Positions 2,112-45,447 of a DNA stretch of 64,000 bases are shown here, in pieces; within the stretch, counting starts at the first letter, position 1; the number at the start of each line of letters is the position of its first letter. Source of the DNA: Candidatus Nomurabacteria bacterium (GTDB lineage: Bacteria; Patescibacteriota; Minisyncoccia; Phycocordibacterales; UBA10002); the NCBI GenBank assembly GCA_943354745.1, contig CALRDB010000001.1, positions 203-64,202 of the forward strand, in the 5' to 3' direction. The position numbers and the translations under genes are program-made. Below the pieces are notes generated by a model. The model was not told the origin of the DNA. It ran no database searches and saw only the letters and a list, made by a program, of their open reading frames with translations.

Positions 2112-2224
2112 GGAAACCGTACTATATGAGTATGCAGAAGCATACAGTCATGAACGTTGTGCCGCCGGCGACCGCCCTCTAATCGGGTTGGTTGTTTCTT
2201 CGTATCCTTTGAGAACTTAGAAAA

Positions 2225-2250
2225 ACTGCCCCGATCGGGGTGGTTTTTTG
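2225..2250 (+). terminator. Intrinsic terminator
   Basis: ctgCCCCGATCGGGGtgg is a GC-rich palindromic stem followed by TTTTTTG, lying downstream of the GT4 gene. Confidence 0.55.
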
Positions 2251-2408
2251 TTATAACTTCCATAATCGGCGCATTTCTTTGTTGCTTCGCTCGTTTGCTC
2301 CCGCAATGTATAAAGCATACATTTTGGTCGCAAGTCTCACTCGCATCTCGAACTGCATCCGATTTTGAAAGTTCTAATGTATCGCTTTATCAAGTTAATC
2401 AATAACAT

Positions 2409-2744
2409 ATGGAAACAATATCGTGGAAAGAGTTTGAGAAAGTAGAGCTTCGGGTGGGGACGATTATGACCGTGGAAGATTTTCCCGAAGCGAGAAAGCC
2501 TGCGTATAAGCTGACAATAGACTTCGGCGAGTTCGGTGTTAAGAAATCAAGCGCGCAAATTACCAAGCATTACAAGAAGGCGGAGCTTATCGGGAAGCAG
2601 GTTGTCGGGGTTATCAACTTTCCTCCTAAGCAAATCGGACCCTTCATTTCAGAATGTCTGACGACCGGCTTCGCGGATGAAAATGGTGATGTAGTGCTCA
2701 CGATGCCAGAGCGACACGTTCCTAATGGCTCAAAGATGTTCTAA
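2409..2744 (+). CDS. tRNA-binding protein (CsaA/Myf-domain family)
   Basis: It is 111 aa with an OB-fold tRNA-binding domain pattern ([31 protein letters not shown]...[21 protein letters not shown]). Confidence 0.65.
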
Positions 2745-2914
2745 ACAATACGCATACATACGGCCTGCTGGCCTTTAGTATTTCGTCGCCTTCGCGCCTC
2801 AATTACAAACCCGTACGAATATACGAATTATGAAGAGTAGAAATAAATACAGCAACATAGTGCCGCCACCGTCTCCGAACCCATAACTCCGGAGCAGATT
2901 TTTTGCACATAAAA

Positions 2915-2950
2915 ACGCTCCGGTTTCGGGGCGTTTTTAATTTTCCTGTG
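2915..2950 (+). terminator. Intrinsic terminator
   Basis: AAAACGCTCCGG-TTT-CGGGGCGTTTTTAATTTT forms an 8-bp stem with one G-U pair plus a T-run. Confidence 0.55.
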
Positions 2951-3040
2951 AGAGTTCGAAGTGCTGCGGATTTTCATAGGAGCGGTAACTACACCCTCCG
3001 AAATCGCATAGTGCGATGCAGAGTTCGTTAACAACTACAT

Positions 3041-3865
3041 ATGCCTATGATACACATCAAAAACAACCTCCTTGTGATAAAGGAAGGCACCGAAAGTCTC
3101 CGAAACGGAGGACAACATCTTGACCCGGCAGTCGCTGATGATACCGTGTCACAAATCGCCGAACTGTGGGAGCGGGGAATAGTAACGGTACTCGTCACTT
3201 CCGGCGCCATAGCGATGGGCCGTTCGCACTGCCAGTCTCATTGGAGAGACGACCGTCCTTTTACAAAGAGCGCCCTCGCGAGTATTGGTGCGTGGCCTCT
3301 TCTCTCGTACTGGGGAAATGCCTTTCTCAAGTACAACTTGCTTATCGGGCAAGGCTGGGTCACCTACGCTTCGCTCAATAACATGTGGGAGCGTGGGATG
3401 TTCGTCAAAGGAGTGCGTACACTTCTTGGTTTGCGCACGGTTCCGGTCATAGACGAAAATGATTTTCTCGCCGACGAAGAGATTCGCGCGCTTGAAAAAG
3501 GTTTCGGAGATAACGACAGTCTCGCGTTCAGAGTAGCCATCCATATACAGGCAGGAGCGATTCTGTTCATTTCGGATACCGACGGCTTCTACACGGAGGA
3601 TCCGAAGCTGAATCCAGAAGCGAGGCGATACAAAACCATCAACGCACGCCGTATCCCAGCTCATCTCATGGAAGGACGTACAGCTGACGGTGTATCGCGA
3701 GGAGGTGTACAGTCAAAAATCCTTTCTGCGGCAAAATGTGCGAAAAATGGCATGTATGTCGGCGTTTCCCGCCAGTCTGTGGGGAAGCGGACGATTGTAG
3801 GCTTCATGGAAGGAAAAACGACGGGGACGTTTGTAAGGGCGCGTGGCAACACGACGCTTGCGTAG
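3041..3865 (+). CDS. proB: Glutamate 5-kinase, short form without PUA domain
   Basis: It has amino-acid-kinase family motifs that align to ProB: VLVTSGAIAMGRSH, VPVIDENDFLADEEI, GDNDSLAFRVA, FISDTDGFYTEDPKLNPEA and GGVQSKILSAAKCAKNG. Confidence 0.7.
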   Translation: MPMIHIKNNLLVIKEGTESLRNGGQHLDPAVADDTVSQIAELWERGIVTVLVTSGAIAMGRSHCQSHWRDDRPFTKSALASIGAWPLLSYWGNAFLKYNLLIGQGWVTYASLNNMWERGMFVKGVRTLLGLRTVPVIDENDFLADEEIRALEKGFGDNDSLAFRVAIHIQAGAILFISDTDGFYTEDPKLNPEARRYKTINARRIPAHLMEGRTADGVSRGGVQSKILSAAKCAKNGMYVGVSRQSVGKRTIVGFMEGKTTGTFVRARGNTTLA

Positions 3866-6394: not shown

Positions 6395-7309
6395 ATGAAC
6401 GCCATTATGCACATGGGGAAAAGAGAGTCTTCGAAACCACTTATTGGGTTTGTCGGACAAGGATTCATCGGCAAGAACTATGCCGATGATTTTGAGAAGC
6501 GCGGATTTACCGTGACGCGGTACGCCATGGAGGAACCGTACCGACAGAACAAGGAAAAAATTAAAGCGTGCGATATTGTCTTTATTGCGGTGCCGACTCC
6601 AACCACTACAGACGGGTATGACTACTCAATCATTGAAAAAGTGCTTCCGCTTATCGGCAAGGGAAAGATAGCGGTGATCAAATCGACGATGCTTCCGGGG
6701 ACTACTGAAGAACTCCAAAAACTTTTTCCCGATATTTTTGTCTTTCATTCGCCGGAGTTTTTACGCGAAAAAACCGCTTCGTACGATGCGGCACATCCTG
6801 ATCGAAACATCATTGGTGTTCCTGTCGAAAACAGCAAGACTCGTGATGCAGCGAAGAAGGTGCTCTCGGTCTTACCTAAGGCTCCGTTTGAGGCAGTACT
6901 GTCCTCTGCTGAGGCCGAACTGGTGAAATATGGAGGGAATGATTTCTTCTATGTGAAAGTTGTCTACATCAATATGCTCTATGATGTAGCGAAAAAGCTT
7001 GGCTGTCGCTGGCAGCAGGTTCGTGATGCGATGATGGCCGATCCTCGTATTGGGCCTTCTCATATGGACCCGGTACACAAAAGCGGACATCTTACGGACA
7101 CTGATGAAGGCGGGCGGGGAGCTGGAGGGCATTGCTTCATTAAAGATTTCGCCGCTTTCACGTTACTCTACGAAAAACTGGTCGGAGATAAAACAGGTAT
7201 TGATGTGCTGCATGCCTTTGTTGAAAAGAACAATGAGCTTCTACGAGCAAGTGGGAAAGACCTTGATTTGTTAGAAGGAGTATATGGAAAAAAAATGAAA
7301 CGTTCGTAA
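6395..7309 (+). CDS. UDP-glucose/GDP-mannose dehydrogenase family protein that appears C-terminally truncated and may be a pseudogene
   Basis: It has the NAD-binding motifs GFVGQGFIGKNYA, ACDIVFIAVPTP and KSTMLPGTTE and the catalytic Cys motif GGHCFIKDFAA. The ORF stops about 55 aa after that Cys, and no UDP-binding domain follows in any frame before the AT-rich spacer. Confidence 0.55.
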   Translation: MNAIMHMGKRESSKPLIGFVGQGFIGKNYADDFEKRGFTVTRYAMEEPYRQNKEKIKACDIVFIAVPTPTTTDGYDYSIIEKVLPLIGKGKIAVIKSTMLPGTTEELQKLFPDIFVFHSPEFLREKTASYDAAHPDRNIIGVPVENSKTRDAAKKVLSVLPKAPFEAVLSSAEAELVKYGGNDFFYVKVVYINMLYDVAKKLGCRWQQVRDAMMADPRIGPSHMDPVHKSGHLTDTDEGGRGAGGHCFIKDFAAFTLLYEKLVGDKTGIDVLHAFVEKNNELLRASGKDLDLLEGVYGKKMKRS

Positions 7310-7406: not shown

Positions 7407-7883
7407 ATGATCCATTTACTGCGAACGTGGGAGGAAAAGTGTTTTAAAATATGTGATCGATACATACCTCGGTTTGCGCCACATCTCCGTAAACGGGCAC
7501 GATTTTTTCGGTATCTCGTCGCCGGAGGGACAGCAGCTTCGGTTGATTTCTTTTTTCTCTACACGTTTACCGAGAAGGTCGGATTACACTATCTCGTCTC
7601 GGCGGCTCTTGCCTTTGTGGCAGCATTTTGTGTGAGTTTCTTATTGCAAAAATTCTGGACGTTTCAAGACGACTCTATAGAGCGTGTTCATACGCAGGTC
7701 GCGCTGTACTTTATATTTGCTCTTATGAATCTTGGTATTAATACAGCACTCATGTACCTCTTTGTCGATGTTATGGAAATCTGGTATATGGGAGCGCAGT
7801 TCCTTGCTTCTGGTCTCATAGCCTTTGAAAGTTTCTTTATTGGTCGCTACTTCATCTTTACTAATAAGACAAGTACGACATAG
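7407..7883 (+). CDS. GtrA-family membrane protein (polyprenol-linked sugar translocation)
   Basis: It is 158 aa with four predicted transmembrane helices and RFxRYLVAGGTAASVDFFFLY, a GtrA-like signature. Confidence 0.6.
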   Translation: MIHLLRTWEEKCFKICDRYIPRFAPHLRKRARFFRYLVAGGTAASVDFFFLYTFTEKVGLHYLVSAALAFVAAFCVSFLLQKFWTFQDDSIERVHTQVALYFIFALMNLGINTALMYLFVDVMEIWYMGAQFLASGLIAFESFFIGRYFIFTNKTSTT

Positions 7884-9675: not shown

Positions 9676-11571
9676 ATGTGTTCAATCAACGGTTTTACAT
9701 GGAAAGATACGGAGCTCATTACGAGAATGAACTCGGTTACGGCACACAGGGGTCCTGATGGAACGGGTGTGTTTACTGACCAAGGTGTCTCTTTAGGTCA
9801 CAATCGTCTTGCCATCATCGACCTTACGCCGACTGGAGCACAGCCGATGACTACAAGTGATGGGCGCTATACGGTTGTCTTTAATGGCGAAATCTATAAT
9901 TTTAAGGAGCTCAGAAGTGAACTCGAGCCACACTTTCAATTTCGTTCTACGAGTGATACCGAAGTTATCTTATACGCCTACGCGAAATATGGGGCGGAAT
10001 GTGTGAAAAAGTTCAATGGAATTTTCGCGTTTGCCATTTGGGACGCACAAACGAAAGAATTATGTTTGGCACGCGATCAGAGTGGGGTAAAACCCCTTTA
10101 CTATTTTTGGGACCCTTTGACGGGGTCAGGGCAACCACGACTCATTTTTTCTTCCGAAATAAAGGCCATTCTTGAACATGACATAGTGCGTGGAGTTGAT
10201 AGTGATGCTTTCGCTCTTTATATGCGGATGCTCTATGTTCCGGAACCGTATACGATGTTTCAAAATGTTAAAAAACTTCCCCCCGCACACTATCTACTAT
10301 TTCGCGATGCGAAACTTTCTTTAAGAAAATATTGGGAAGTCTCTGATTTTTCTGATATCTCGTCAAGGGAAGAAGCTCTACAGGGTATTCGTTCACTTTT
10401 TGACGATTCGGTGAAAAGGCAGCTTGTATCCGATCGGCCAGTGGGAGTGTTCCTTAGTGGGGGATTCGATTCGAGTGCCATACTAGGTGCCGTAACAAAA
10501 CACACTTCGAGCAAAGTCAAAACCTACTCCGTTGGCTTCGATGTCGATGTGCAGCGAGAGAAATTCAACGCGGATTTTGCGCTTGCAGAAAAAACTGCGA
10601 ATCATTATCACACAGACCACCGTACGCTTATGATTTCAGGGAAAGATATCGTAAATGAGCTTCCCAAAATCGCGTGGCATCTCGATGAGCCTAATGCTAA
10701 TCCGACCGCGGGCGCCATCTATTTTCTTTCGCGCTTAGCTAAGAAAGATGTCGCTGTCGTGTTGGGAGGTGACGGTGCGGATGAACTCTTTGGGGGATAT
10801 CGGCGCTACGCACTTTCTCGTGTCATTCGGCGTTTCGGAAAACTCCCGAGTACGATACGTCACTCCATTATGTATCTTCTCCGGCAAGGGAAACGAGCGG
10901 AGATAATCGAGAAGTTCTCTTTGAATAATCCTACCGATCTCTTTCTTTCATTTCTTTCTCAAAAAGAGACCGAAGTCTCTGCTGTGATCCGAAAGGATAT
11001 GCAAACAAATCTCTTGCCGAAAAAACATTTTTCACGTTATTTTACTTCTGCAGATTTCTTAGACGATTTTGAAAAGAAATTTATGAATGTGGATCGTCAG
11101 AGTTGGCTTACCGACGAGTCACTTCTCCGGAGCGATAAAATGACCATGGCTTTTGGGCTTGAAGAGCGAGTTCCAATTCTCGATTACCGATTGGTCGAAC
11201 TTTCGGCGCGTATCCCAACAAAGTGGAAGATGACGCACTCCGGTTTACGTTCCGATTCGTTTAAAGGGAAAGATATTTGGCGCGAAGCGATATCGGAGTA
11301 TCTTCCGCGGCATGTTCTACGCGAACCTAAGCGAGGATGGTTCACGCCGATGGCAAAATGGCTTCGCACAGACCTTAGGAGTCATGTCTCTGAGATTCTT
11401 TCTTCCGCCCATCTTAACCCTGATTTCTTTAACGCAAAGGAAGTTCAAAGAATGTGGCAAGACCATCTAGAGGGTAAGAGGTATAACCTGAATCTCATTT
11501 GGGCTATCGTCATGTGGCAGTTGTGGTACGATACCTTTATAAAAAATAATGATACAGGGAAAAAACTATGA
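9676..11571 (+). CDS. asnB: Asparagine synthase (glutamine-hydrolysing)-like amidotransferase
   Basis: It begins MC(S)ING with the Cys2 nucleophile and has a PP-loop (SGGFDSSAIL). It is 631 aa and sits inside a glycan cluster. Confidence 0.8.
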   Translation: MCSINGFTWKDTELITRMNSVTAHRGPDGTGVFTDQGVSLGHNRLAIIDLTPTGAQPMTTSDGRYTVVFNGEIYNFKELRSELEPHFQFRSTSDTEVILYAYAKYGAECVKKFNGIFAFAIWDAQTKELCLARDQSGVKPLYYFWDPLTGSGQPRLIFSSEIKAILEHDIVRGVDSDAFALYMRMLYVPEPYTMFQNVKKLPPAHYLLFRDAKLSLRKYWEVSDFSDISSREEALQGIRSLFDDSVKRQLVSDRPVGVFLSGGFDSSAILGAVTKHTSSKVKTYSVGFDVDVQREKFNADFALAEKTANHYHTDHRTLMISGKDIVNELPKIAWHLDEPNANPTAGAIYFLSRLAKKDVAVVLGGDGADELFGGYRRYALSRVIRRFGKLPSTIRHSIMYLLRQGKRAEIIEKFSLNNPTDLFLSFLSQKETEVSAVIRKDMQTNLLPKKHFSRYFTSADFLDDFEKKFMNVDRQSWLTDESLLRSDKMTMAFGLEERVPILDYRLVELSARIPTKWKMTHSGLRSDSFKGKDIWREAISEYLPRHVLREPKRGWFTPMAKWLRTDLRSHVSEILSSAHLNPDFFNAKEVQRMWQDHLEGKRYNLNLIWAIVMWQLWYDTFIKNNDTGKKL

Positions 11572-12425
11572 AATTTCGAGAAGGTAAGAGTGTCGAACTC
11601 ACAGGAAAAGTGAAGGAGTGGTGGGACAAAAATCCATTTACGTATCTTATGGATAATAAGCAAATCACTCCAGATTGGGCGTTTTTTCGCAATATAGATC
11701 GAAAAATCATCAAATGGATGCCCTGGGCGCAGAAAGGGTATCCGCTTCTTTCGAACGTAATTGACTACGGAGCTCTCAAGGGTAAGAAAGTACTTGATAT
11801 TGCGGTGGGTACCGGATGGAGCACCGAGCAATTTGTCCGTAGTGGTGCCGAGGTAACTGCGGTCGATCTTACTCCAGCGGCCGTGGAACTTACTAAGAAA
11901 CGACTGGCGCTGTACAATCTGTCCGCTACTGTTCAGGTAGCCGATGCGCAGCAGTTGCCGTTTCCCGACAACACCTTCGATTTCGTACTTGCGTTTGGTT
12001 GTCTCATGCATATGCCTGATACGAAGAAGGCAATCGATGAGATTTGGAGAGTGTTGAAGCCGGGAGGACGTGCTTCTGCGATGATGTACTACAAACATTC
12101 ACTCCATTGGTGGTACTACATCTTTTTCGGGAAGGGGATAGTGCGGGGGAAATTGTTTTCAATGAGTGTGCAAGAACTCTCCAATCGCTATACCGACGGC
12201 GCATACGAAGAAGGGAATCAACTCACGAAGTTTTACAGCAAGAAGGAAATTAGAAAGCTGTTTTCTCAATTTCCCACCATATGTATACGAGTGTTTGATG
12301 TGGCAACGCCAATTAATCATCTCCCGCACCGATTCTTTCCATTGGGGATGCTTATTCCGCCTCCAATAAAGAGATGGCTCACCACTAAGGTGGGGCAGAC
12401 ACTTTGGATCGATGTACAAAAATGA
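11568..12425 (+). CDS. Class I SAM-dependent methyltransferase
   Basis: It has VLDIAVGTGWSTE and LKPGGRA motifs and overlaps the previous gene by 4 bp. Confidence 0.7.
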   Translation: MKFREGKSVELTGKVKEWWDKNPFTYLMDNKQITPDWAFFRNIDRKIIKWMPWAQKGYPLLSNVIDYGALKGKKVLDIAVGTGWSTEQFVRSGAEVTAVDLTPAAVELTKKRLALYNLSATVQVADAQQLPFPDNTFDFVLAFGCLMHMPDTKKAIDEIWRVLKPGGRASAMMYYKHSLHWWYYIFFGKGIVRGKLFSMSVQELSNRYTDGAYEEGNQLTKFYSKKEIRKLFSQFPTICIRVFDVATPINHLPHRFFPLGMLIPPPIKRWLTTKVGQTLWIDVQK

Positions 12426-13510
12426 GCACGACCAAAGTCTATATCATCGATACAAAAGACGTTCCGGAGTGGCTCCCTCTTTCGCTTGTCTTTTGGCCGA
12501 ATTACCGTTTTGAGATTCCGGAAAAACGTCTCTTTCTTAAGGAGATTATGGCTCCGTATACGAAGCCTTTTCTCGATATCGTTTCAGATATCGAGGAAGC
12601 TGATTTTATCGCCGTGCCGGTCGATTATTTTTTCGTCTTGGAGCACGCACCGGAATATCTCGCACGAGTGTATACTTTCGCGAAGGAATTAGGGAAGAAA
12701 GTACTTCTTTTTGATTATACTGACTATGTTGACCGCGTACCAAAACTCCCTGCCCACGCGGTACTTTTTCGAGTGTCGGTGTATCGACACCATAAACAAC
12801 CGAGTGAAATTGTAATGCCGTATTTTGTTGAAGATTTGGGTACGAACTATGCTATAACACCGAAAGAGCGAGGGTCCTCTCTTATTGTGGGATACTGCGG
12901 ACAAGCGCGGTTTGGAAGTATCGCAAAGAAATGGAAGGCCGTCGCAAAACGGATAGCTCAATCAATTCTTTTACGCCTCCGGCGTGATGTAAGACCGGCC
13001 GTGCATATCCGAGGTATCTTCTGGAGAAATCAAGTCATACGCGCTCTACGGAAAGGCGGAACCGAATGCCGAATCATTGAGCGCGCATTCTATTCTCTGC
13101 ACCAATCTGGGGTAGTGGCTGATCCGAAAGATATTCGGCGAGACTACGTGGAGAATTTAAAAGAATGTGATCTTGCTCTTTGCGTGCGTGGTGATGCAAA
13201 TGCATCGCAACGCTTTTTTGAGGCACTTTCAGCTTCTCGTATTCCACTCCTTCTTGATACTGACGTTGTACTCCCTCTCGAGGGTGTCGTCAGTTATACT
13301 GACTGTGTCGTTCGGATTCCTTTCGATGACATAAAGTGCATCTCACGACACGTTGATGTGTGGAGCAGTACACATGAATCTTCTGTGTTTGTGGAAATGG
13401 AACAAAAAGCTCGCAAGACATACGAGAGTTTCCTCCGTCTGGACCAATATTTCGATCTTGTCTTTGATCGAGAACGAAGTCCTTATAAAACTATTCTTTA
13501 TGACGCATAA
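12422..13510 (+). CDS. Exostosin (GT47)-like glycosyltransferase
   Basis: Its C-terminal region (LALCVRGDANASQRFFEALSASRIPLLLDTDVVLPLEGVVSYTDCVVRIPFDD) matches the GT47/exostosin core pattern. ATGA start/stop overlap at 12422. Confidence 0.5.
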   Translation: MSTTKVYIIDTKDVPEWLPLSLVFWPNYRFEIPEKRLFLKEIMAPYTKPFLDIVSDIEEADFIAVPVDYFFVLEHAPEYLARVYTFAKELGKKVLLFDYTDYVDRVPKLPAHAVLFRVSVYRHHKQPSEIVMPYFVEDLGTNYAITPKERGSSLIVGYCGQARFGSIAKKWKAVAKRIAQSILLRLRRDVRPAVHIRGIFWRNQVIRALRKGGTECRIIERAFYSLHQSGVVADPKDIRRDYVENLKECDLALCVRGDANASQRFFEALSASRIPLLLDTDVVLPLEGVVSYTDCVVRIPFDDIKCISRHVDVWSSTHESSVFVEMEQKARKTYESFLRLDQYFDLVFDRERSPYKTILYDA

Positions 13511-14621
13511 CAAAATCTTCTACATCGCAAATGTCCGCCTTCCAACGGAGAAAGCCCATGGTATGCAGATCATGAAGTCTTGTGAAGCTTTTGCTCGTGC
13601 GGGTATGGACGTTGAGCTCGTTGTTCCTCGTAGAAGAAATCTCTTTGCCGATGATCCCTTTGAGTATTACACGGTAGAGAGAAATTTTACAATCACGCCG
13701 ATCTTGGTAATTGATACCGTCCGTTTCGGACGTCTCGGATTTCTCGTTGAACTCTTTAGTTTTCTTATTGTAGCTCGGCTGTACCTGCGAGCTAAAGACG
13801 CTATTGTGTACACAAGAGAGGAGGCAGTGGGTTTTTTCTTCAAGGATTTTGTTCTAGAGATGCATGCTATTCCTGAACACGTAGGCAACCTGCGTTTATA
13901 TCTTTGGAAGAAGGCAAAGGGACTTACGGTTCTTACGCGTTTCATAAAGGATAGGCTGGTACAAAGTGGTGTTTCTGAGCAACGAATCTTCATTTCTCCC
14001 GACGCGGTGGATTTACGTTTGTTTGATCTCCCACTTTCTAAAGAAGCAGCTCGGGAGAAATTGAGTCTTCCTTTAAATCGGAAGATTGTACTGTATGCCG
14101 GCAGTTTCTTTTTATACGACTGGAAAGGCGTGGACATACTCCTTGAGTCAGCAAAGCAGTTCGAAGAGCCTCACCTTTTTGTTTTAGTTGGGGGAAGTAA
14201 AGAGGAAGTGAATAAGGCAAGGGCAAGCTGGGGTAGAGACAATATTCTTTTTCTGGGTCACCAGCCACCTCGAACTATTCCTACGTATCTTAAGGCGGCA
14301 GACGTGCTTGTGATTCCTAATAAAAAGGGGTCAACTACTTCAGAGTACTATACCTCTCCTCTGAAACTCTTTGAGTATATGGCTTCAGGGAGACCTATTA
14401 TTGCTTCGAGGATCCCATCCTTAGAAGAGGTTGTTAGCGCTAAGGAGGTGTTGTTCTTTGAGCCAAATAATGTAGAGGACCTTGTGCTTGGTATTCGTCA
14501 GATTTTTCAAGATGAATCATTTGCTCAATCGCTCGCGTGTAGTGCTCGAAAACAGGTTGAGGGGTTTACTTGGGACATGCGTATGAAAAAAGTACTCGAG
14601 AAGATAATGCTGTTATGTTGA
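13500..14621 (+). CDS. Glycosyltransferase, GT4 family
   Basis: I place the start at MTHNKIFYIANVRLPTEKAHGMQ, a typical GT4 N-terminus; the ORF listed from 13353 is an upstream extension. Confidence 0.7.
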   Translation: MTHNKIFYIANVRLPTEKAHGMQIMKSCEAFARAGMDVELVVPRRRNLFADDPFEYYTVERNFTITPILVIDTVRFGRLGFLVELFSFLIVARLYLRAKDAIVYTREEAVGFFFKDFVLEMHAIPEHVGNLRLYLWKKAKGLTVLTRFIKDRLVQSGVSEQRIFISPDAVDLRLFDLPLSKEAAREKLSLPLNRKIVLYAGSFFLYDWKGVDILLESAKQFEEPHLFVLVGGSKEEVNKARASWGRDNILFLGHQPPRTIPTYLKAADVLVIPNKKGSTTSEYYTSPLKLFEYMASGRPIIASRIPSLEEVVSAKEVLFFEPNNVEDLVLGIRQIFQDESFAQSLACSARKQVEGFTWDMRMKKVLEKIMLLC

Positions 14622-15289: not shown

Positions 15290-16156
15290 ATGTCTTCACT
15301 TAAAAAAGTTCTCATAACTGGTGCAAATGGCTTTACGGGGAGAGAGATGGTGCGGGTACTTTTAGCTGACTCTTCAAAAGAGATTTATCTAACTGATCGA
15401 ACAGAGACTGAAGTGTCTTCACTTCGAGTCAAAAAGTGTGATCTATCAGACCTTCCTTCTGTTGAGGCTTGTATTGAAAAAATCCAACCGAATGAGATTT
15501 ATCATTTAGTGGGTAGCTACACCAACGTCTACGATGTGGATTATATATCTAATGTTACCACCACAAAAAACATTTTGGATGCGCTTCGCAGTTTGGGTCT
15601 GAAGACTCGCGTCCTTTTGGTAGGAAGTTCGGCGGAATATGGATTTCCTCTAAATCCTTCTAAGGGAGTTGGTGAAGATCACCCTCTTTTGCCGGTATCG
15701 GTGTACGGGCTCGTCAAAACATATCAGCACATGCTTATGGGGACGTATGTTCGTTTATACGGTCTAGATCTTGTAGCGGTTCGGCCGTTCAATCTCCTTG
15801 GGAACGGTGTTTCTCCGGTACTGTTTGCCGGAAAAATGAGGCAAGAAATACAACGGTACAAAAAAGGCGAAATCAAGAGTATTGTTACTGGGGATCTTTC
15901 GGTCGAGCGGGATTATATTGATATTAGGGAAGCGATAACGTACTATCGATTGGTCATGGAGCAAGGGGCTACGGGAGAAGTGTATAACGTAGGGAGTGGT
16001 AAAAGTATACCTCTTCGGACACTCATGCAGAACATGCTTGTATCGGAAGGATTGTCATTCAATAGTGTGGAAGAAGGAGTACATCACATACCAGGGAAGA
16101 TCGTAGTTCCTAAGATATGTGCCGACATAACAAAGATAAAGAGACTTAACGTATGA
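15290..16156 (+). CDS. NAD-dependent epimerase/dehydratase (extended SDR, nucleotide-sugar reductase-like)
   Basis: It has ITGANGFTG Rossmann and YGLVK catalytic motifs. Confidence 0.7.
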   Translation: MSSLKKVLITGANGFTGREMVRVLLADSSKEIYLTDRTETEVSSLRVKKCDLSDLPSVEACIEKIQPNEIYHLVGSYTNVYDVDYISNVTTTKNILDALRSLGLKTRVLLVGSSAEYGFPLNPSKGVGEDHPLLPVSVYGLVKTYQHMLMGTYVRLYGLDLVAVRPFNLLGNGVSPVLFAGKMRQEIQRYKKGEIKSIVTGDLSVERDYIDIREAITYYRLVMEQGATGEVYNVGSGKSIPLRTLMQNMLVSEGLSFNSVEEGVHHIPGKIVVPKICADITKIKRLNV

Positions 16157-17103
16157 CAACAAGCAAACACAAGAAAACACTCACGGTTGTTGCGCCGGTA
16201 TACAACGAGGAAGAAGTGATACGAGATTTTTATCAAGAGCTGAAAAACACGCTTCTCACTCTGTCTGAGTACCGCTCGACAATGCTCTTTGTGGTTGGAC
16301 GGGGAACCGATCGTACCTTTCCAATCCTGAAAGAAATCGCCACGGCGGACTCTTCGCTTCGCGTTCTGTACCTCTCTTCTCGTTTTGGACATCAAATGCA
16401 ATTACTCGCCGGTATCGACCATGCAGATTCCGATATCGTCATTATGATGGATTCGGATTTGCAACACCCTCCGGAAATTATTCCAACACTCCTTGCGGAA
16501 TATGAAAAAGGGAATGACGTAGTCTATACCGTTCGCGAGAAGACCTCCGATCAGGGTGTACTCCGGAAATGGTGTTCCGATATGTTCTATTGGTTTCTCA
16601 ACAAAATCTCCGATGTCCGCATAAGCGGTAATGCCGCCGATTTCAGGCTTATTTCACGAAAGGTGGCAGAGGTATTGAGACGTGAAATCCGGGAACGTAA
16701 TTTATTCCTGAGAGGGATCATACCGTGGCTCGGGTTTAATCAAATAGGAGTTTCTTTCGTCGCGAACCCTCGGCGGGCAGGGAAGAGTAAGTATTCATTT
16801 TCTCGCCTGATTACCTTTGGTCTCTCTGGGGTTGTTTCGTTCAGTAGAAAACCACTTCGCGTAGCTATCGTTGTTGGTCTCTTCGTTGCAAGTCTCGGTT
16901 TTCTGTATGCACTAACGGTTATTGCACAATCCTTTTACAATAGATCTTTACCCGCAGGCTGGGCGACCGTTATTGTGCTTTTGTCTATATTTGGCGGATT
17001 GCAACTCATTTTCTTGGGGATTCTTGGTGAATATATTGGCGCGATATTTGACGAAGTAAAGAAGCGTCCACATTATATTGTCGATCAGAAAATTAATTTT
17101 TAA
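16153..17103 (+). CDS. GT2 polyprenol-phosphate glycosyltransferase (GtrB/DPM1/ArnC-like)
   Basis: It has a GT2 N-terminal domain (VVAPVYNEEEVI, MDSDLQHPP) plus two C-terminal transmembrane helices. Confidence 0.75.
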   Translation: MTTSKHKKTLTVVAPVYNEEEVIRDFYQELKNTLLTLSEYRSTMLFVVGRGTDRTFPILKEIATADSSLRVLYLSSRFGHQMQLLAGIDHADSDIVIMMDSDLQHPPEIIPTLLAEYEKGNDVVYTVREKTSDQGVLRKWCSDMFYWFLNKISDVRISGNAADFRLISRKVAEVLRREIRERNLFLRGIIPWLGFNQIGVSFVANPRRAGKSKYSFSRLITFGLSGVVSFSRKPLRVAIVVGLFVASLGFLYALTVIAQSFYNRSLPAGWATVIVLLSIFGGLQLIFLGILGEYIGAIFDEVKKRPHYIVDQKINF

Positions 17104-17105
17104 CT

Positions 17106-17930
17106 ATGAACTGTCATATTTGTAACAGCTCCAACACTCGGGTCCTCGATTCCCGATACGAAGTGTATTTCTGTAGAACCTGCGGTCATGAATTCAGTGC
17201 CTTGCCTCCCGAACGACAGGAAACCTACAGCCCGGAATATTTTCGTGAAGCGCACAAGAAATGGTTTGAAAATCCAAACGCCGTTTTGTTTCAGTGGATA
17301 CACACCATAGTGGAGGCGACAACACGCGGAAATCCGAGTGCCGCCTCGTTTCTTGACGTTGGGTGTGGCCAAGGAGATCTCCTTCGCTACCTGCGGGATG
17401 CGGGGAGTACCGTCAAGCTTTTCGGTGTTGATCTTGTACAGAATGCCGACGAGAGAATCACCTACTATCGGGGGGATTTCGTTTCCTTCCCGTTTGCAGA
17501 ACGGTTCGATGTGATTTCCGGGCTTATGGTCATCGAACACGTCGGTGGCCCGCACCAGTTTGTGCGCAAAATCAGTTCGATACTTAAGCCCGGAGGCATC
17601 GTCATTATGAATACCGTGAACGCGGGCGGATTTTTGTACACGCTGGCACGGGTGCTCCGCAGGGCGGGTCTTCGTGGCCCGTTCGAACGGCTGTACGACA
17701 AACATCATCTTGAGCACTACCGCGTCGCCTCACTTCGTAAACTGTTCGAGCTTGAAGGGTATCGCGTCATACGCATCCGCACGCATAATTTCCCGCTACG
17801 GGCTCTTGACGTGCCGGAAGGAAACGCACTTCTTGCGCGTATCTACCGAATCGGTATCGCCTGCGTGTTTTTTCTGACATCGCACTGGGGTGGGGTACAC
17901 GAAACCATTATCGTTCAAAAAGACACATGA
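17106..17930 (+). CDS. SAM-dependent methyltransferase with N-terminal zinc ribbon
   Basis: It has CHICNS...CRTCGH followed by LDVGCGQGDL and LKPGGIVIM. Confidence 0.65.
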   Translation: MNCHICNSSNTRVLDSRYEVYFCRTCGHEFSALPPERQETYSPEYFREAHKKWFENPNAVLFQWIHTIVEATTRGNPSAASFLDVGCGQGDLLRYLRDAGSTVKLFGVDLVQNADERITYYRGDFVSFPFAERFDVISGLMVIEHVGGPHQFVRKISSILKPGGIVIMNTVNAGGFLYTLARVLRRAGLRGPFERLYDKHHLEHYRVASLRKLFELEGYRVIRIRTHNFPLRALDVPEGNALLARIYRIGIACVFFLTSHWGGVHETIIVQKDT

Positions 17931-19405
17931 GCGCGCCTGCGAAGATACGGGATCTTATACGGACACGGCCGGAAGTACTCGCGCTTTTCGGTGTCCTCTT
18001 GTTCATGAATGTATACGCCTTTTCCGGTCTCAAAGAGCGGCCGGAGTATTGGTACGATGAAGGACTTAATGTCGAACTTTCCCGGAGTGTCGCAGAGTTC
18101 GGCATTCCGGATATCGTCATCGCGCCCGATACGCTTTCGGAAAGCGGCGCGAGGATCGGATCGACCGGCTACCCAATCACCGTTCTGCTCGGAGGGGTAT
18201 TCAAAATCTTCGGTGTCGGGGTGGTGCAAGCCCGGCTGTGCATGTTGCTGTGGATGAACGCCCTGGTTATTTCACTTTTTTTTGCGATTCGGAAACGGTG
18301 GGGGAGTCAGGAGGCTATTGGTACCCTGCTTCTCTGTACCACCTTCGCTCCTTTTTACGGGAACGGTCTTACGGTCATGGGAGAAATTCCCGGTCTTTTC
18401 TTTCTCCTTTGGTCGTTTTATTTTTTTGAACAAAAGACCTATTGGAAATCCGGACTGTTGCTCGGCCTCTCGGTTGTTTCGAAGCCGTCGGTCTATCTCT
18501 TTTTTATTCCCGCGTTCACGGTCGCGCTCCTGTTCGGGAAAGAAACCGGGCGCGAAAAGTTGAAAAATCTCTGTAAACTCGGCGTTACTTCAATCGCCGC
18601 CCTTGTTCCTTGGGTGCTAATTTACCGTGACTCAGTCAGCCGTGTTTCTTTCTGGGAGGGGTTATTCTCGCACTTCAAAAATCCATACGGGGATTTCGGA
18701 TTCTCGGTCTGGGGAAATATTCAGAACAATCTCGGAGGATTCTTCCATTCGTCCACGCTTATCTATTTTTCCTTACTCACGCTCGCTGTACTCTGCGCGC
18801 TTGCCGCAGAGCGCTCGCTCGCGCGTGAACACCGAACACTTCTCGTTGTCGCGCTTGTATACCTTCCCCTTTCATTTTTTCAGTATCTGAAAAGTCTCGG
18901 ATATCTTCGCTATCTTATCGCCACAGAATTTTTACTTTTCCTTCTGTTCGTTTTAGTGCTACCGACACTTACCCGGTTTGCACTGAACTACGTCCCCTTT
19001 TTATCTGTCAGGGTTTCCCGTGCCGCGGGCGCCGTTCTCACAGTCCTCATACTCTTTCAGGCCGTTCATCTGTTTTGGTTTTCCGACCTGTACTCCGGCA
19101 GGAGCGCGGAAATGACCGTGGCATACATACAGCTTGTCTATCCTGAAGGTGTAATCGGCATTATCAATGCGCCACAGGTGGGGAGTCTTATCTCACCGCA
19201 CCGGAAGTACCAGTATCTATCAACCTTCGGTCTCACGAAGTTCGGAGTGAATCCTGTCTTTCTTGCGCCTGAGAAAATGCCCGTCGCTATCGTTACCGAC
19301 GGGAAGAACAATATACTTTCTCTCGAAGAACAGGAGTTGCTCCTAATGCGGTATGCGCCGGACGTAACATTCACCGAAGATTTTTTGGTGTACAAAAAGA
19401 AGTAA
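17927..19405 (+). CDS. Polytopic membrane protein, putative GT-C fold glycosyltransferase (PMT/ArnT-like)
   Basis: It is 492 aa with at least ten predicted transmembrane helices and lies next to GtrB-like synthases. Confidence 0.5.
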   Translation: MSAPAKIRDLIRTRPEVLALFGVLLFMNVYAFSGLKERPEYWYDEGLNVELSRSVAEFGIPDIVIAPDTLSESGARIGSTGYPITVLLGGVFKIFGVGVVQARLCMLLWMNALVISLFFAIRKRWGSQEAIGTLLLCTTFAPFYGNGLTVMGEIPGLFFLLWSFYFFEQKTYWKSGLLLGLSVVSKPSVYLFFIPAFTVALLFGKETGREKLKNLCKLGVTSIAALVPWVLIYRDSVSRVSFWEGLFSHFKNPYGDFGFSVWGNIQNNLGGFFHSSTLIYFSLLTLAVLCALAAERSLAREHRTLLVVALVYLPLSFFQYLKSLGYLRYLIATEFLLFLLFVLVLPTLTRFALNYVPFLSVRVSRAAGAVLTVLILFQAVHLFWFSDLYSGRSAEMTVAYIQLVYPEGVIGIINAPQVGSLISPHRKYQYLSTFGLTKFGVNPVFLAPEKMPVAIVTDGKNNILSLEEQELLLMRYAPDVTFTEDFLVYKKK

Positions 19406-20271: not shown

Positions 20272-21645
20272 TCAGTCCGTCTTTTCTGCTTTGTTTAACA
20301 AAACTTTCGCTTTGCTGCCAATCCCATAAGCACCATATACCGCAAAGATAAGAATAAGAGCGTCCACAGGCATCCTGAATCGTGCATTAACTGCAAGACC
20401 CACTGCTATCGTCGTCAGTGCGAAATAGGCGATAAGGAGAGAGATGAAGATACCTCTGGTCCTATACTCTGGTATCTTGATATACCTAAATGCACCATAA
20501 AAGAAGCACAGCGAAATGAGTATCCATGCGATTCTTCCAAAGATCACAAAGAGTATCGGACTTGTAAGGAGTGGGACGATGAAATTGAGCGTTTTTACTG
20601 GAGATTCTAAGAAGAGGGTAAGTGCTGGACGATCCATTTGGAGAGAGGGAGAAATTTTCAATTGCTGTAAAACATCCATATAGCCGTCATGTGAAAAGAA
20701 AGTCAGAAATGTTGTGATAACGGATTTCAGTATACCCATTGGATGTTCCCTAATTATCGGGAAAATGCGCTTTTTGTATTCCTCGGCATTTGTTAGGGTA
20801 ATGTCCTCTACACTTGTGATGTTACCTTCGCCTATGTAGAACTCACGTTTGGCTTGTTCGAACCCGATGTGCTTTTCCGCCGCGAGTACCGAAGGTATAA
20901 GATATCCAAAAGGGACACTCGCATATTGGACTGATAATGACGGATTCCCAAAACGTATGAGGTTTCGAATGCACCACGGTGCAATTATAAGGAAAAAGAT
21001 TCCTCCCATGATTAACGAATGAAGACCGGCCTGCCGTGATCTTTTCAAAAGTAGGAACACTATACCGATAAGTAAAAAAGGTAGAAACTGAATAGTTGGT
21101 CGCGTAAGAGTCGCAAATGCGAAGAAACCAGTCGCATAAGCAAGGGTAGCCATCTTTTGTTCTTGTATGTAGTCTAAGAAAAAGGTAACTCCCGCAAGGA
21201 GGAGGACCGTAAATAGTGTTTCACTAATCAGTATTGTCGCCAGCAAGATATTGAGTGGTTCGAATGCGAGTAGAAGAGCAATGCTATTTGCAGTTCGTTT
21301 CCATGCAGGCAACAGTTGAAGTGAAATACGATAGGCGAGTAGTGGGATAAGACCGCCAAGGATAATCTGCGCAAAGAGGGCGATGTAGTAGTTTTTGAAA
21401 ATAAGGACAAACGCTGCTAAGAAAAGCGGATAAAAAGGGGTCCGTACGGATCCTGGAATAAAAGGTGGTTGTACTGCGTGTGAGAACCCGTTACCTAACA
21501 ATAAATTTTCTGCGATCTCATAATATCCATCAAGATGGGGAATAGGCATGACAGACTTCTGGTCTGACTGCATAAGTAATACATAAAAAAAGAGCAACCG
21601 TGCTAGAACGGCAAGAGAAAAAAACAACCACATTTTACGGGACAT
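20272..21645 (-). CDS. Polytopic membrane protein, putative GT-C glycosyltransferase (GT39/GT83 PMT/ArnT-like)
   Basis: It is 457 aa with about twelve transmembrane helices and an N-terminal loop after the first helix typical of the GT-C family. Confidence 0.55.
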   Translation of the reverse strand: MSRKMWLFFSLAVLARLLFFYVLLMQSDQKSVMPIPHLDGYYEIAENLLLGNGFSHAVQPPFIPGSVRTPFYPLFLAAFVLIFKNYYIALFAQIILGGLIPLLAYRISLQLLPAWKRTANSIALLLAFEPLNILLATILISETLFTVLLLAGVTFFLDYIQEQKMATLAYATGFFAFATLTRPTIQFLPFLLIGIVFLLLKRSRQAGLHSLIMGGIFFLIIAPWCIRNLIRFGNPSLSVQYASVPFGYLIPSVLAAEKHIGFEQAKREFYIGEGNITSVEDITLTNAEEYKKRIFPIIREHPMGILKSVITTFLTFFSHDGYMDVLQQLKISPSLQMDRPALTLFLESPVKTLNFIVPLLTSPILFVIFGRIAWILISLCFFYGAFRYIKIPEYRTRGIFISLLIAYFALTTIAVGLAVNARFRMPVDALILIFAVYGAYGIGSKAKVLLNKAEKTD

Positions 21646-21686
21646 AATATGTTTACTTTTATTTTAAGAGACACTATAATCACTCA

Positions 21687-22457
21687 ATGTCATTTTTTGG
21701 CGGAAAACCGAAGATCATAGGAATGATTCCTGCGTACAACTGCGCGCATCTCCTTAAGAAGGCGTATGAGCAAGTCCCGAAAGAATACTTTGATGATATC
21801 ATTGTGGTTGATGATGGGTCAACGGACGAAACACTCACTGTCGCTAAAACTCTCGGTGTAAAAGTGTTTACACATCCGCACGCAGGCTATGGGGGGAATA
21901 TTAAGTATGCTATCAAGCAAGCTCTCTCACTCGGAGCAGAGTATATGATTGAGATTCACGGAGACGGGCAGTATGACCCTGCCAACATCCCGGAGGCCAT
22001 AAAAAAGATACACACAGGTAACTACGATTTTCTTCTTGGTTCCCGTTTTACCTCACTCCTTCAGCCACTTCGCGACAGGATGTCACTTGTTCGGTATGTA
22101 GCAAATCTAGGCATGAGTTTTATTGATCGTCTGGTGTTACGTCTTCCACTTTCCGAGTTTCATCAAGGATTTCGTGTTTACTCGAGGAATCTTATCGAGT
22201 CAGTCGGTCTCGATCACACCAGCGATGATCATCTGTTCAGCTTTCAGATTATCGCGAAAGCCGCATTTGCACGAATGCGAGTGGGGGAGATATCTGTTAG
22301 GTGTAACTACGCCGAGGAACATACGTCTATAAATCTACGACGATCAGTTGTGTACGCAATACTTACCTTTGGCGTTCTTCTGCAGTACATTCTTGCTATG
22401 GTTGGATTTCACTCGCTGCTTTTTCGGAAAGAGAGCAAGAATCGCATCACTGCATAG
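21687..22457 (+). CDS. GT2 glycosyltransferase (dolichol-phosphate-mannose/glucose synthase-like)
   Basis: It has a GT2 signature (IPAYNCAHLLKK...IIVVDDGSTDETL) and a C-terminal hydrophobic helix. Confidence 0.7.
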   Translation: MSFFGGKPKIIGMIPAYNCAHLLKKAYEQVPKEYFDDIIVVDDGSTDETLTVAKTLGVKVFTHPHAGYGGNIKYAIKQALSLGAEYMIEIHGDGQYDPANIPEAIKKIHTGNYDFLLGSRFTSLLQPLRDRMSLVRYVANLGMSFIDRLVLRLPLSEFHQGFRVYSRNLIESVGLDHTSDDHLFSFQIIAKAAFARMRVGEISVRCNYAEEHTSINLRRSVVYAILTFGVLLQYILAMVGFHSLLFRKESKNRITA

Positions 22458-26736: not shown

Positions 26737-27744
26737 ATGATTTTAACCCGAACACCATTTCGTCTGCCACTTGGCGGAGGCTCGACCGATTTACCCGCGT
26801 ACTTCGAAAAGCACGGGGGTTTTATTTTTGCCGTTGCCATTAATCTCTATATGTATATAGGAGTAAATCGTCCTCCAGTAGATGATTTAATTCGTCTAAA
26901 ATATCGGGATAGTGAAGAAGTCTTCAGCATCAATGATCTTAAGCATAGTATTGCCAAAGCAGCGCTTAAACGGACAGGCATTGACCGTATGGTTGAAATT
27001 TCCTCAAAGGCCGATGTTTCTGATGGTACCGGCATGGGCAGTTCGGCAAGTTATCTCATCGGACTTCTTAATGCTCTGCATACCATAAAAGGGGAGAACA
27101 TATCACGAAGACATCTTGCCGAGGAAGCCTATGAGATCGCTACTCACGATCTCGGTCTCCCAGATGGTAAACAAGATTTCTACCTTGCTTCTTTTGGAAA
27201 CTTTTGTGTACTCGACATTGCGCGAAACGGGTCAGTAACCGTCTCAAACGCGAACATTTCAAAGGCAGTCCAGACCGAATTTGAAAAACGTACCCTTCTC
27301 TTTTATACCGGAGTACGCCGATCGAGTACAGAACTTCTTAAGGATCAAGAAAAGAAACTCCGGAATAATAAAAAAGATGCTGTGGAGTTAAAGCATGAGA
27401 CAAAACGTATCGGCAAAACTATTTTAGACGTATTTGAATCAGGAAGACTCAATGAGTTCGGCCGTCTTCTTGATGAGCATTGGAAACTTAAGAGAAAAAT
27501 GTCTGCAAAGATGAGTACCGATAAGTTTGATGCACTCTATGAAAAAGCAAAAAAGGCGGGAGTGCTTGGGGGAAAGATTGTTGGCGCCGGAGGCGGAGGA
27601 TTTTTTATGGTATTTTGCAAAGACGGAAAACAAAACGCGGTCCGGAAAGTTTTTAAGAAGGAAGGAATGCGTGAGGTGTCATTTTCGGTAGATTCTGCAG
27701 GTACGCAGGTGTTGGTTAATAAACCTCGGTCACACACTCTGTAA
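26737..27744 (+). CDS. GHMP-family sugar kinase (D-glycero-D-manno-heptose 7-phosphate kinase HddA-like)
   Basis: It has PFRLPLGGGSTD and a GHMP motif (GTGMGSSASYLIGLLNAL). Confidence 0.65.
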   Translation: MILTRTPFRLPLGGGSTDLPAYFEKHGGFIFAVAINLYMYIGVNRPPVDDLIRLKYRDSEEVFSINDLKHSIAKAALKRTGIDRMVEISSKADVSDGTGMGSSASYLIGLLNALHTIKGENISRRHLAEEAYEIATHDLGLPDGKQDFYLASFGNFCVLDIARNGSVTVSNANISKAVQTEFEKRTLLFYTGVRRSSTELLKDQEKKLRNNKKDAVELKHETKRIGKTILDVFESGRLNEFGRLLDEHWKLKRKMSAKMSTDKFDALYEKAKKAGVLGGKIVGAGGGGFFMVFCKDGKQNAVRKVFKKEGMREVSFSVDSAGTQVLVNKPRSHTL

Positions 27745-27748
27745 TATA

Positions 27749-29080
27749 ATGTCTAAGAAACCACTTACCATTGGCGTGGTCGGACTCTGGCACCTCGGAA
27801 GCGTCTACGCTGCCGGTCTTGCCGAGCTTGGTCACCAGGTAGTTGGCTTCGATTCCGATGGTTCGGTTGTAAAGAAGTTTGCGAAAGGGATTCTTCCGGT
27901 TAGTGAAGAAGGTCTAAGTCAGTTAACATTGAAGAATATTAAGGCGGGAAGACTTGAGTTTACGAACAGTCTTCAAAAGCTTGCGTTATGTGATATTGTT
28001 TGGATTACAATTGACACTCCTTGCGATACGCATAACCTTCCCAATACATCTTCTATTTTGAAACTCCTCTCTTCTCTCGCACCGCTGCTAAGTAATGATG
28101 TTTCTATAATTGTTTCGAGTCAGGTCCCAGTAGGAAGCGGGGACATGCTTCGCCTCCGTATTCAAAAAGCAAATCCAACACTTCGTTTTTCGTATAGCTA
28201 TCAACCGGAGAATTTACAACTTGGGAAAGCGCGGCACAGTTTTTTTCACCCTGCGCGCATTGTGGTAGGAGTTGAAACGAAAGAAACGGAAGCACTTTTC
28301 GAAAGTATTTTTAGGAACGTTGATGCTCCAAAGCTCTATATGAGTGTTCCTTCTGCGGAGATGGTAAAGCACGCGGTAAATGCATTTCTCGCCACTTCAC
28401 TTAGTTTCATCTATGACATATCTGACATGTGCGAGGTTTTCGGCGCGGACGTGCTTCGTGTTTCCGAAGCATTGAAGAGTGATTTACGTATTGGGAAGTC
28501 CGCCTACCTTGATTCTAGTATTGGATTCTCCGGCGCGACGCTTGGTCGCGATCTCTCGGTACTTGTCGATAGGTCAAGAGAAAAGAACGTACTACTCCCG
28601 GTTATTGCTGGAGCCCGGCTTAAAAATGAAAAACGTTGGCAGATGGCACTACCCATTCTTAAAAAAGAGCTCGGAGATTTGTCTAAGGTAACTATCGGTT
28701 TTCTTGGGATTGCGTACAAGCCGGGGACGTCTACCGTGCGGGATTCGCTCTCGCTCAAACTTATGCGTACACTCTCACCTCTCGCTAAGGAAATATGTGC
28801 GCATGATCCTTTGGTTCCTAAAGAGGCGGTTCTTGCCGCGGGTCCCTATCGGTTCTGCTCCGACCCCTACAAGCTCGCACAAGGCTCATCGGCGCTTATC
28901 CTCATGACCGCCTGGCCAGAGTATAGTAAGCTTGATTTTAAGAGGATTAGGCAGAGCATGAAAGGCCCAAAGCTTTTCTTTGACGCCAAAAATGCGCTCT
29001 GGCAAGAAGAGGCTCGCATAACCGCAGCTGGCCTTCGCTACATCGGCATCGGCCGTGGACGTACTAAGGTAACATCATGA
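27749..29080 (+). CDS. Nucleotide-sugar dehydrogenase (UDP-glucose/UDP-ManNAc/UDP-GlcNAc 6-dehydrogenase family), full length
   Basis: It has an N-terminal Rossmann fold (IGVVGLWHLGSVYAAGLA) and is 443 aa including the C-terminal UDP-binding domain. Confidence 0.7.
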   Translation: MSKKPLTIGVVGLWHLGSVYAAGLAELGHQVVGFDSDGSVVKKFAKGILPVSEEGLSQLTLKNIKAGRLEFTNSLQKLALCDIVWITIDTPCDTHNLPNTSSILKLLSSLAPLLSNDVSIIVSSQVPVGSGDMLRLRIQKANPTLRFSYSYQPENLQLGKARHSFFHPARIVVGVETKETEALFESIFRNVDAPKLYMSVPSAEMVKHAVNAFLATSLSFIYDISDMCEVFGADVLRVSEALKSDLRIGKSAYLDSSIGFSGATLGRDLSVLVDRSREKNVLLPVIAGARLKNEKRWQMALPILKKELGDLSKVTIGFLGIAYKPGTSTVRDSLSLKLMRTLSPLAKEICAHDPLVPKEAVLAAGPYRFCSDPYKLAQGSSALILMTAWPEYSKLDFKRIRQSMKGPKLFFDAKNALWQEEARITAAGLRYIGIGRGRTKVTS

Positions 29081-30922: not shown

Positions 30923-31614
30923 AAGCCATCGTACTCGCAGCCGGAGAAGGAAAGCGGATGTTACCACTGACACTCACAGTGCCTAAGCCCATGCTTATGA
31001 TTGGCGGGCAGACTGTCCTTGATCATATCTTTGAAGGGTTTCCGGAAGAAATTACCGAGGCAATAATCGTGGTGCGGTATCTCGGAGAGAAGATACGGGA
31101 GTATTGCGGGGATATGTTCCATGGAAGACCAGTACGCTATGTGGAAGGGAGCGAGAAGGGAAACGCGTATAGTTTTCTTGCCGCTTCACCGTTTGTTGCG
31201 CCACAGGAGCGAGTGATGGCACTGTACGCCGATGAAATGCCGAGTCGAGAGAATATGGAGAAGTGTCTTTCTCACGAATACAGCTGGCTCGTAAAAGAAA
31301 CACTTCGTCCGAAGGCGGCAGGAGTCGTGGAGCTTCGTCCTGACGGAACCATAGAGCGTATTGTCGAGAAATCGGAGAACCCTCCTTCAAATATGGCGGC
31401 AATCGGACTTATGGTGCTCCCCGGCCCCATCTTCGCCATACAGCCCGAACAAAACCACAATGGCGAGTATTATTTTACCAGTATGGCGAACAAAATCTTT
31501 CCGAAAACGAACGTCTATGCCGTTCTGACATCCGGAGGATGCTCGCTCACCAAACCTGAGGACATACCGAAGGTGGAAGCGTTTCTTGCCACGCGAAAAA
31601 ACAATCATGTCTAG
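30919..31614 (+). CDS. Sugar-1-phosphate nucleotidyltransferase (HddC-like D-glycero-alpha-D-manno-heptose-1-P guanylyltransferase)
   Basis: It has the NTP_transferase motif MKAIVLAAGEGKRMLPLTLTVPKPM. Confidence 0.65.
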   Translation: MKAIVLAAGEGKRMLPLTLTVPKPMLMIGGQTVLDHIFEGFPEEITEAIIVVRYLGEKIREYCGDMFHGRPVRYVEGSEKGNAYSFLAASPFVAPQERVMALYADEMPSRENMEKCLSHEYSWLVKETLRPKAAGVVELRPDGTIERIVEKSENPPSNMAAIGLMVLPGPIFAIQPEQNHNGEYYFTSMANKIFPKTNVYAVLTSGGCSLTKPEDIPKVEAFLATRKNNHV

Positions 31615-45424: not shown

Positions 45425-45447
45425 TCTTCATCCTTTCTCGTTATCCA

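Follow-up and report, generated by a model that had tools for sequence, protein, structure and literature searches.

Glycosyltransferase (GT) family 47 is known almost entirely from animals, with the heparan sulfate polymerases and hereditary multiple exostoses, and from plants, where its members serve xyloglucan, xylan and pectin synthesis. The plant enzymes MUR3, IRX10, ARAD1 and XGD1 are type II Golgi membrane proteins with a single GT47 domain and a shared C-terminal core motif, and act as inverting uridine diphosphate (UDP)-sugar transferases, each attaching a single sugar to a polysaccharide. The described enzyme to which we compare most closely is human EXT1, whose N-terminal GT47 domain (PDB 7sch, 7zay) is the beta-1,4-glucuronosyltransferase of heparan sulfate. 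We report that a 64,000-nucleotide stretch of DNA from a Candidatus Nomurabacteria bacterium (assembly GCA_943354745.1, contig CALRDB010000001.1, positions 203 to 64,202; here the window, numbered from its first letter) encodes a small bacterial member of the exostosin (GT47) family, hereafter the GT47 protein. The bacterium itself resembles Candidatus Taylorbacteria, in the Patescibacteria. It is very likely a soluble or peripherally membrane-bound cytoplasmic GT-B UDP-sugar glycosyltransferase that acts in surface-glycan assembly.

In the EXT1 GT47 domain, UDP is held by Arg280, Arg346 and Glu349 while Tyr324 stacks on the uracil, and the R280A and R346A substitutions lower the transfer of glucuronic acid (GlcA); the reaction is metal-independent, an SN2-like inverting mechanism with Asp162 or Asp164 as the base has been put forward, and the loop Gly339-Phe345 has been proposed to read GlcA (PMC9675754). 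The report on the EXTL3 structure speaks of "the eukaryotic GT47 family" (PMC9178029).

Family membership and predicted fold

The interval assigned to a glycosyltransferase in the initial annotation coincides exactly with one open reading frame (ORF; Table 1). Its product matches the Pfam model Exostosin_GT47 (PF03016) with 36.1 bits (E = 5.9e-9), above the curated gathering cut-off of 33.4, while an NCBIfam scan of the protein gave no match. From a large protein database we obtained 81 homologues, nearly all approximately 355-362 amino acids long and with a precomputed PF03016 match; those with names come from metagenome-assembled genomes (MAGs) of Candidatus Taylorbacteria or Parcubacteria, and a few are already titled "exostosin family protein". 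The GT47 protein belongs to this bacterial group (P0001-P0066), the members of which are of equal length and show 50-71% full-length identity to it; no full-length database homologue exceeds 71%, and one 231-residue fragment (P0006) is 100% identical. For conservation counts we used 73 diverse relatives, 25-54% identical to the GT47 protein, and all of these match PF03016 (best E = 2.9e-17).

A first profile (A1), built from 40 of the homologues and compared with all PDB sequences, retrieved EXT1 (6.6e-8), EXTL3 (6.9e-6) and EXT2 (2.1e-5), and below E = 2 nothing but exostosins. Using hhalign, the first profile aligned with EXT1 residues 96-435 over 254 columns (95.4% probability), and a broader profile of 73 sequences (A2) aligned with EXT1 over 303 columns (95.7% probability, E = 8.6e-9); the EXT1 query was 100% identical to residues 70-409 of PDB 7sch_A. 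HMMER with the broad profile covered the C-terminal core, the N-terminal subdomain being reached by hhalign, and the region around EXT1 R280 was aligned correctly with A2 and misaligned with the first profile. As judged from these alignments, homology to EXT1 extends beyond the C-terminal core shared by GT-B enzymes and reaches the N-terminal subdomain. When a 99-residue fragment of EXT1 was searched against the large protein database, short fragments of up to approximately 175 residues and no full-length eukaryotic GT47 protein were returned.

The C-terminal core motif (residues 256-286; Table 1) comprises R256-G257, S262-x-R264, E267-A268, I274-P275, D279 (in D-T-D) and P285, and G257, N260, S262 and P285 are invariant among the 73 relatives. 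HMMER aligned this block without a gap to EXT1 residues 338-368, and hence its spacing is that of the eukaryotic protein, as the initial annotation had claimed. All the motif elements named there were recovered except the final Phe: the last element is Pro285-Leu286 instead of the canonical Pro-Phe, and at this position 48 of the relatives carry Leu and 19 carry Phe.

The AlphaFold2 model generated from the A1 alignment has a mean predicted local distance difference test score of 94.2 and a predicted template modelling score of 0.92. It shows the GT-B architecture of two Rossmann-like halves, and the fold starts at residue 5. In a Foldseek search of the PDB, the best 16 matches were all EXT1, EXT2 or EXTL3 (E = 1.9e-11 to 1.9e-7). 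The reading as an exostosin/GT47-like glycosyltransferase in a glycan cluster, which was to be dropped if no GT47 profile matched and the structure fell into another GT-B family, is thus upheld by the Pfam, profile-profile and Foldseek results: the PF03016 score lies above its cut-off, the predicted fold is GT-B, and the nearest solved structures are GT47 domains, including that of EXTL3.

Predicted donor site, cellular setting and function

EXT1 residues were mapped onto the GT47 protein through alignments, and their placement in the cleft is predicted from the same alignments (Table 1). With hhalign and the broader profile, G198-x-x-x-R202-N corresponds to EXT1 G276-S-D-T-R280-N, and together with the counterparts of Tyr324, Arg346 and Glu349 this suggests that the nucleotide site is intact. 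Since EXT2 lacks R346, the intact site sets the GT47 protein apart from it and suggests that it is probably an active UDP-sugar transferase. Asp101, the sole invariant acidic residue of the N-terminal subdomain among the relatives, is the probable candidate for the general base.

The GT47 protein shares approximately 15-20% identity with EXT1 and differs from it in being a stand-alone domain without GT64, stem, transmembrane anchor or a heterodimer partner of the same family. No hydrophobic segment was found along the protein (the highest 19-residue Kyte-Doolittle mean is 1.23), and we conclude for this reason that it works in the cytoplasm, whereas EXT1 resides in the Golgi lumen. The type II anchor, stem and lumenal domain of the eukaryotic Golgi enzymes are accordingly absent, an architecture that family membership does not require. 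Compared with EXT1, the bacterial protein has an additional basic amphipathic helix in an insertion at residues ~165-192; AlphaFold2 places a helix at 167-186, and approximately 15 residues (178-192) fall in a gap of the EXT1 alignment. The highest hydrophobic moment of the protein, 0.66, is shared by the 18-residue windows starting at 177, within the insertion, and at 207. Windows starting at 174-176 have moments of 0.63-0.65 and a net charge of +5, and the median net charge of the region across the 73 relatives is +3. This helix may dock at the membrane interface beside a lipid-linked acceptor.

We propose that the UDP-sugar would be bound in the cleft of the C-terminal subdomain, with Tyr242 on the uracil, Glu267 on the ribose, and Arg202 and Arg264 on the diphosphate, and that the sugar would be transferred without a metal ion and with inversion of the anomeric configuration, Asp101 acting as the base. 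As acceptor we envisage an oligosaccharide under elongation, which would most likely be attached to a lipid on the cytoplasmic side of the membrane. In this way the GT47 protein would form a single linkage of a surface glycan that is heavily methylated and probably contains a uronic acid or its amide; the neighbouring GT4 enzymes, AsnB-like amidotransferase and methyltransferases would build the remainder, and a GT2/GtrA/GT-C arm would decorate the glycan outside the cell.

Several points weigh against assigning this activity. Both EXT1 base candidates, D162 and D164, are replaced (F71 and L73), and the loop GRRLGSF (G339-F345) of EXT1 reads GDANASQ in the GT47 protein. The features of an EXT1-type glucuronosyltransferase are thus missing, and because of these two differences the donor and acceptor specificity of EXT1 is not transferable. 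Moreover, enzymatic activity in the bacterial GT47 clade is a prediction, and the PF03016 model aligns with 70 residues of the C-terminal core only (residues 236-305; profile positions 220-284 of 293). Neither an initiating phosphoglycosyl transferase nor Wzx/Wzy was identified in the window, which makes the lipid-linked acceptor an assumption. Finally, two of the three solved GT47 domains, those of EXT2 and EXTL3, are thought to be inactive, such that the fold alone is no proof of activity.

The last point invites the view that the GT47 protein is, like these two, a catalytically dead scaffold that organises or stabilises the neighbouring GT4 enzyme or amidotransferase. Here the loss of R346 in EXT2 contrasts with R264, kept in all but one of the relatives, and with it R202, E267, an aromatic residue at 242, the invariant D101, N260 and S262 are retained jointly, as expected from selection on a working donor site; we consider a dead scaffold quite unlikely. 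RXYLT1 (TMEM5) offers a different model, since this exostosin-related beta-xylosyltransferase uses ribitol phosphate as its acceptor, and a similar enzyme in this bacterium would decorate a polyol-phosphate, teichoic-acid-like chain. Its C-terminal domain model, RXYLT1_C (PF24785), shows weak similarity to the C-terminal core (E = 3.6e-4) and matches 53 of the 73 relatives (best E = 3.9e-8), and a TagF-type Glyphos_transf gene is found in the vicinity of one distant homologue (L024). With 20.5 bits the RXYLT1_C match reaches neither its gathering cut-off of 27 nor the PF03016 score, the two matches overlap on one common core, and neither in the window nor in the Taylorbacteria loci was a cytidine diphosphate (CDP)-ribitol or CDP-glycerol pathway or a TagF-like gene identified beside the GT47 gene; an RXYLT1-like function appears unlikely.

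The protein could also belong to another GT-B family (GT4, GT90, GT114) or be a GT-B-like pyruvyl or glycerophosphate transferase, with the motif acquired by convergence. GT4 and other GT-B enzymes do appear in the Foldseek search, at lower rank (from approximately 1.6e-6), and neither an HMM match nor the nearest structures place the protein in GT4 (Glycos_transf_1); we regard such an assignment as hardly credible.

Gene neighbourhood and distribution

The coding sequences of the methyltransferase, GT47 and GT4 genes overlap at their ends, the GT4 start lying 11 nucleotides inside the GT47 gene, and they are thus probably co-translated parts of one operon. Between 984 and 19405 all Pfam-annotated genes are on the forward strand, and with few exceptions they relate to glycans; the chief interruptions are a stretch without ORFs of at least 150 codons (2112-3040) and an amino-acid-kinase-family gene (3041-3865). 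Upstream, the order towards the GT47 gene is GT4, a short nucleotide-sugar-dehydrogenase-like gene, GtrA, GT4, methyltransferase, AsnB-like amidotransferase and methyltransferase, and it is followed by GT4, methyltransferase, epimerase/dehydratase, a PgfS/ArnC-like GT2, methyltransferase and a PMT_2 GT-C.

Table 1. Features in and around the GT47 gene and elsewhere in the window; EXT1 counterparts were assigned by alignment and counts refer to the 73 relatives
Feature	Position	Strand	Remarks
GT47/exostosin-family GT-B glycosyltransferase	12422..13510	+	362 amino acids (362 codons), single domain; ATG at 12422, stop 13508-13510; no signal peptide or membrane anchor
D101 (EXT1 D202)	12722..12724	+	Asp in 73/73
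R202 (EXT1 R280)	13025..13027	+	Arg in 73/73
Y242 (EXT1 Y324)			Tyr or Phe in 72/73
R264 (EXT1 R346)			kept in 72/73
E267 (EXT1 E349)			kept in 71/73
F71 (EXT1 D162)			variable
L73 (EXT1 D164)			variable
C-terminal GT47 core motif, residues 256-286, RGDANASQRFFEALSASRIPLLLDTDVVLPL	13187..13279	+	includes predicted diphosphate-/ribose-binding R264 and E267
Basic amphipathic insertion, residues ~165-192	12914..12997	+	predicted helical, partly without EXT1 counterpart
S-adenosylmethionine-dependent methyltransferase	11568..12425	+	stop overlaps GT47 start (ATGA)
GT4 glycosyltransferase	13500..14621	+	373 amino acids; ATG at 13500; Pfam Glycos_transf_1 and Glyco_trans_1_2
AsnB-like glutamine amidotransferase	9676..11571	+	Pfam Asn_synthase and GATase_7; TIGR01536 462 bits, above cut-off
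Nucleotide-sugar dehydrogenase	27749-29080		full-length
Nucleotide-sugar-dehydrogenase-like protein	6395-7309		304 amino acids; N-terminal and central domains, no C-terminal UDP-binding domain
ORF with ~9 predicted transmembrane segments	36351-38132		593 amino acids
Capsule_synth (KpsS/KpsC-type) protein	42535-44037	-	~480-500 amino acids
HisF/HisH-like pair	45448-46918		adjoins Cys-rich ORF
Cys-rich ORF	46955-48139		394 amino acids; no Pfam match
CMP-sugar cytidylyltransferase	48143-48856
NeuB	49861-50928
NeuC-like 2-epimerase	50783-52066
Fused ABC exporter	54891-56891
Capsule_synth (KpsS/KpsC-type) protein	56951-58399	+	~480-500 amino acids

The gene order of the window (AsnB-like, methyltransferase in some cases, GT47, GT4) is shared with the P0001-P0066 group without substantive difference, and contigs of Taylorbacteria and Parcubacteria from numerous samples show it again. 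Among 26 fetched loci surveyed by tblastn, most have a GT4 gene directly after the GT47 gene and an AsnB-like gene before it; the former holds for most Taylorbacteria-type loci and the latter for 18 of the 26, the distant L023 among them, and orthologues of the methyltransferase (86-88% identity) occupy the equivalent position in L005, L006 and L007. The AsnB-like link is also kept in two distant homologues, L023 and L024 (31-34% identity). An AsnB-like gene is missing from L019 and was not found within 8 kb in L025 and L026, which rules it out as a universal partner; the partnership is frequent and not obligatory. A GC content like that of the neighbouring genes, the overlap with both neighbours and the synteny across many MAGs exclude both contamination and a recent acquisition from a eukaryote.

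AsnB-like enzymes of polysaccharide loci typically amidate the carboxylates of uronic acids, and with a full-length nucleotide-sugar dehydrogenase also encoded in the window, a glycan containing uronic acid or uronamide is plausible; the divergent sugar loop cautions against taking the GT47 protein itself to transfer the uronic acid. The AsnB-like, GT47, GT4 order extends over the Taylorbacteria loci, and two distant lineages show a looser form of it. It could be that in Patescibacteria these three form a fixed module which installs an EXT1-like beta-linked uronic acid that is then amidated, and that such stand-alone proteins represent the prokaryotic stock of the eukaryotic exostosins and plant cell-wall GT47 enzymes. 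We regard this as doubtful; if true, the module would give functional access to bacterial GT47 enzymes for the first time.

Two further observations concern these loci. The short nucleotide-sugar-dehydrogenase-like protein is kept at 61-80% identity in the equivalent position of Taylorbacteria loci, and its short form is therefore no one-off truncation. In the related Taylorbacteria contig L005, the syntenic glycan cluster is immediately preceded by a reverse-transcriptase (RVT_1) gene (1-790).

Among GTDB species representatives the close GT47 clade was found in Patescibacteria only (16 of 16 loci), several labelled Taylorbacteria and others carrying generic names of the candidate phyla radiation (CPR). 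A profile search of 1.84 billion cluster representatives at 50% identity gave 4,812 matches at E <= 1e-3, 1,909 at E <= 1e-10 and 888 at E <= 1e-30; most of the best 150 are approximately 330-370 amino acids long, and one cluster holds a protein from a Deltaproteobacteria MAG. The single-domain family is thus large, and its description as rare in bacteria in the initial annotation is inaccurate for environmental genomes; that it is poorly characterised agrees with our full-text literature searches, which yielded no publication on a GT47 from bacteria or the CPR. The family label is not new, given that the Pfam tag, and in some entries the exostosin name, is already attached to public records, and the gene does not in itself change current understanding. 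The data describe a compact, anchor-free GT47 with an apparently intact UDP site as a stable, vertically inherited part of the CPR surface-glycan machinery, in a single-domain form that is widespread in metagenomes and that adds one piece of information on how the eukaryotic family arose. Its appeal is modest and lies in the conserved AsnB-like, GT47, GT4 arrangement in a CPR lineage and in a possible soluble model, which could be easier to use for studying the GT47 mechanism.

Other genes of the window

The window is devoted almost wholly to glycan biosynthesis from 984 to 63126, with nearly all genes on the forward strand, and includes at least seven GT4, four GT2, two PMT_2 GT-C and at least 12 methyltransferase genes. 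For a CPR bacterium, the genome of which is presumably small, this amounts to a very large investment. Six genes (26737-27744, 30919-31614, 32750-33286, 33348-34112, 34789-35400 and 39182-40303) encode a GHMP kinase, a nucleotidyltransferase, a HAD phosphatase and transaldolase-like, SIS-domain and GDP (guanosine diphosphate)-mannose-4,6-dehydratase-like proteins; judged by their Pfam domains only, this set looks like a GDP-heptose or 6-deoxyheptose pathway of the GmhA/HddA/GmhB/HddC type.

The regions 44876-55102 and 58409-60546 look like a nonulosonic-acid pathway of the legionaminic or pseudaminic type. Here NeuB, a cytidine monophosphate (CMP)-sugar cytidylyltransferase and a NeuC-like 2-epimerase are accompanied by PseB-like dehydratases, DegT aminotransferases and a formyltransferase, and the HisF/HisH-like pair together with the adjoining Cys-rich ORF resembles acetamidino-forming systems. 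Two Capsule_synth genes, the products of which may be CMP-sugar-dependent transferases, flank the nonulosonic-acid genes and a fused ATP-binding cassette (ABC) exporter. The ORF listed for the exporter overlaps the preceding dehydratase gene (54056-55102) by approximately 210 nucleotides, and its true start is for this reason probably further downstream.

Genes at 7407-7883, 15290-19405 and 20272-22457 encode GtrA, an epimerase, the PgfS/ArnC-like GT2 (which scores 270 bits against the PgfS model, less than the cut-off requires), two PMT_2 GT-C membrane proteins and, after the second of these, a further GT2 (21687-22457). Together these genes resemble an arm for extracytoplasmic glycosylation from polyprenyl-phosphate-sugars, and their layout recalls the streptococcal Pgf protein-glycosylation system. 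The 593-residue membrane protein encoded at 36351-38132 could be a polymerase, a ligase or a GT-C-like protein; it had no match in Pfam and NCBIfam scans and, by tblastn at 1e-5, no similarity to unannotated ORFs of approximately 600 residues near distant GT47 homologues. Finally, the first ORF (14-889), which may continue upstream of the window start, has PKD and lamin-tail (LTD) domains; its product is probably a surface protein and a possible target of glycosylation.
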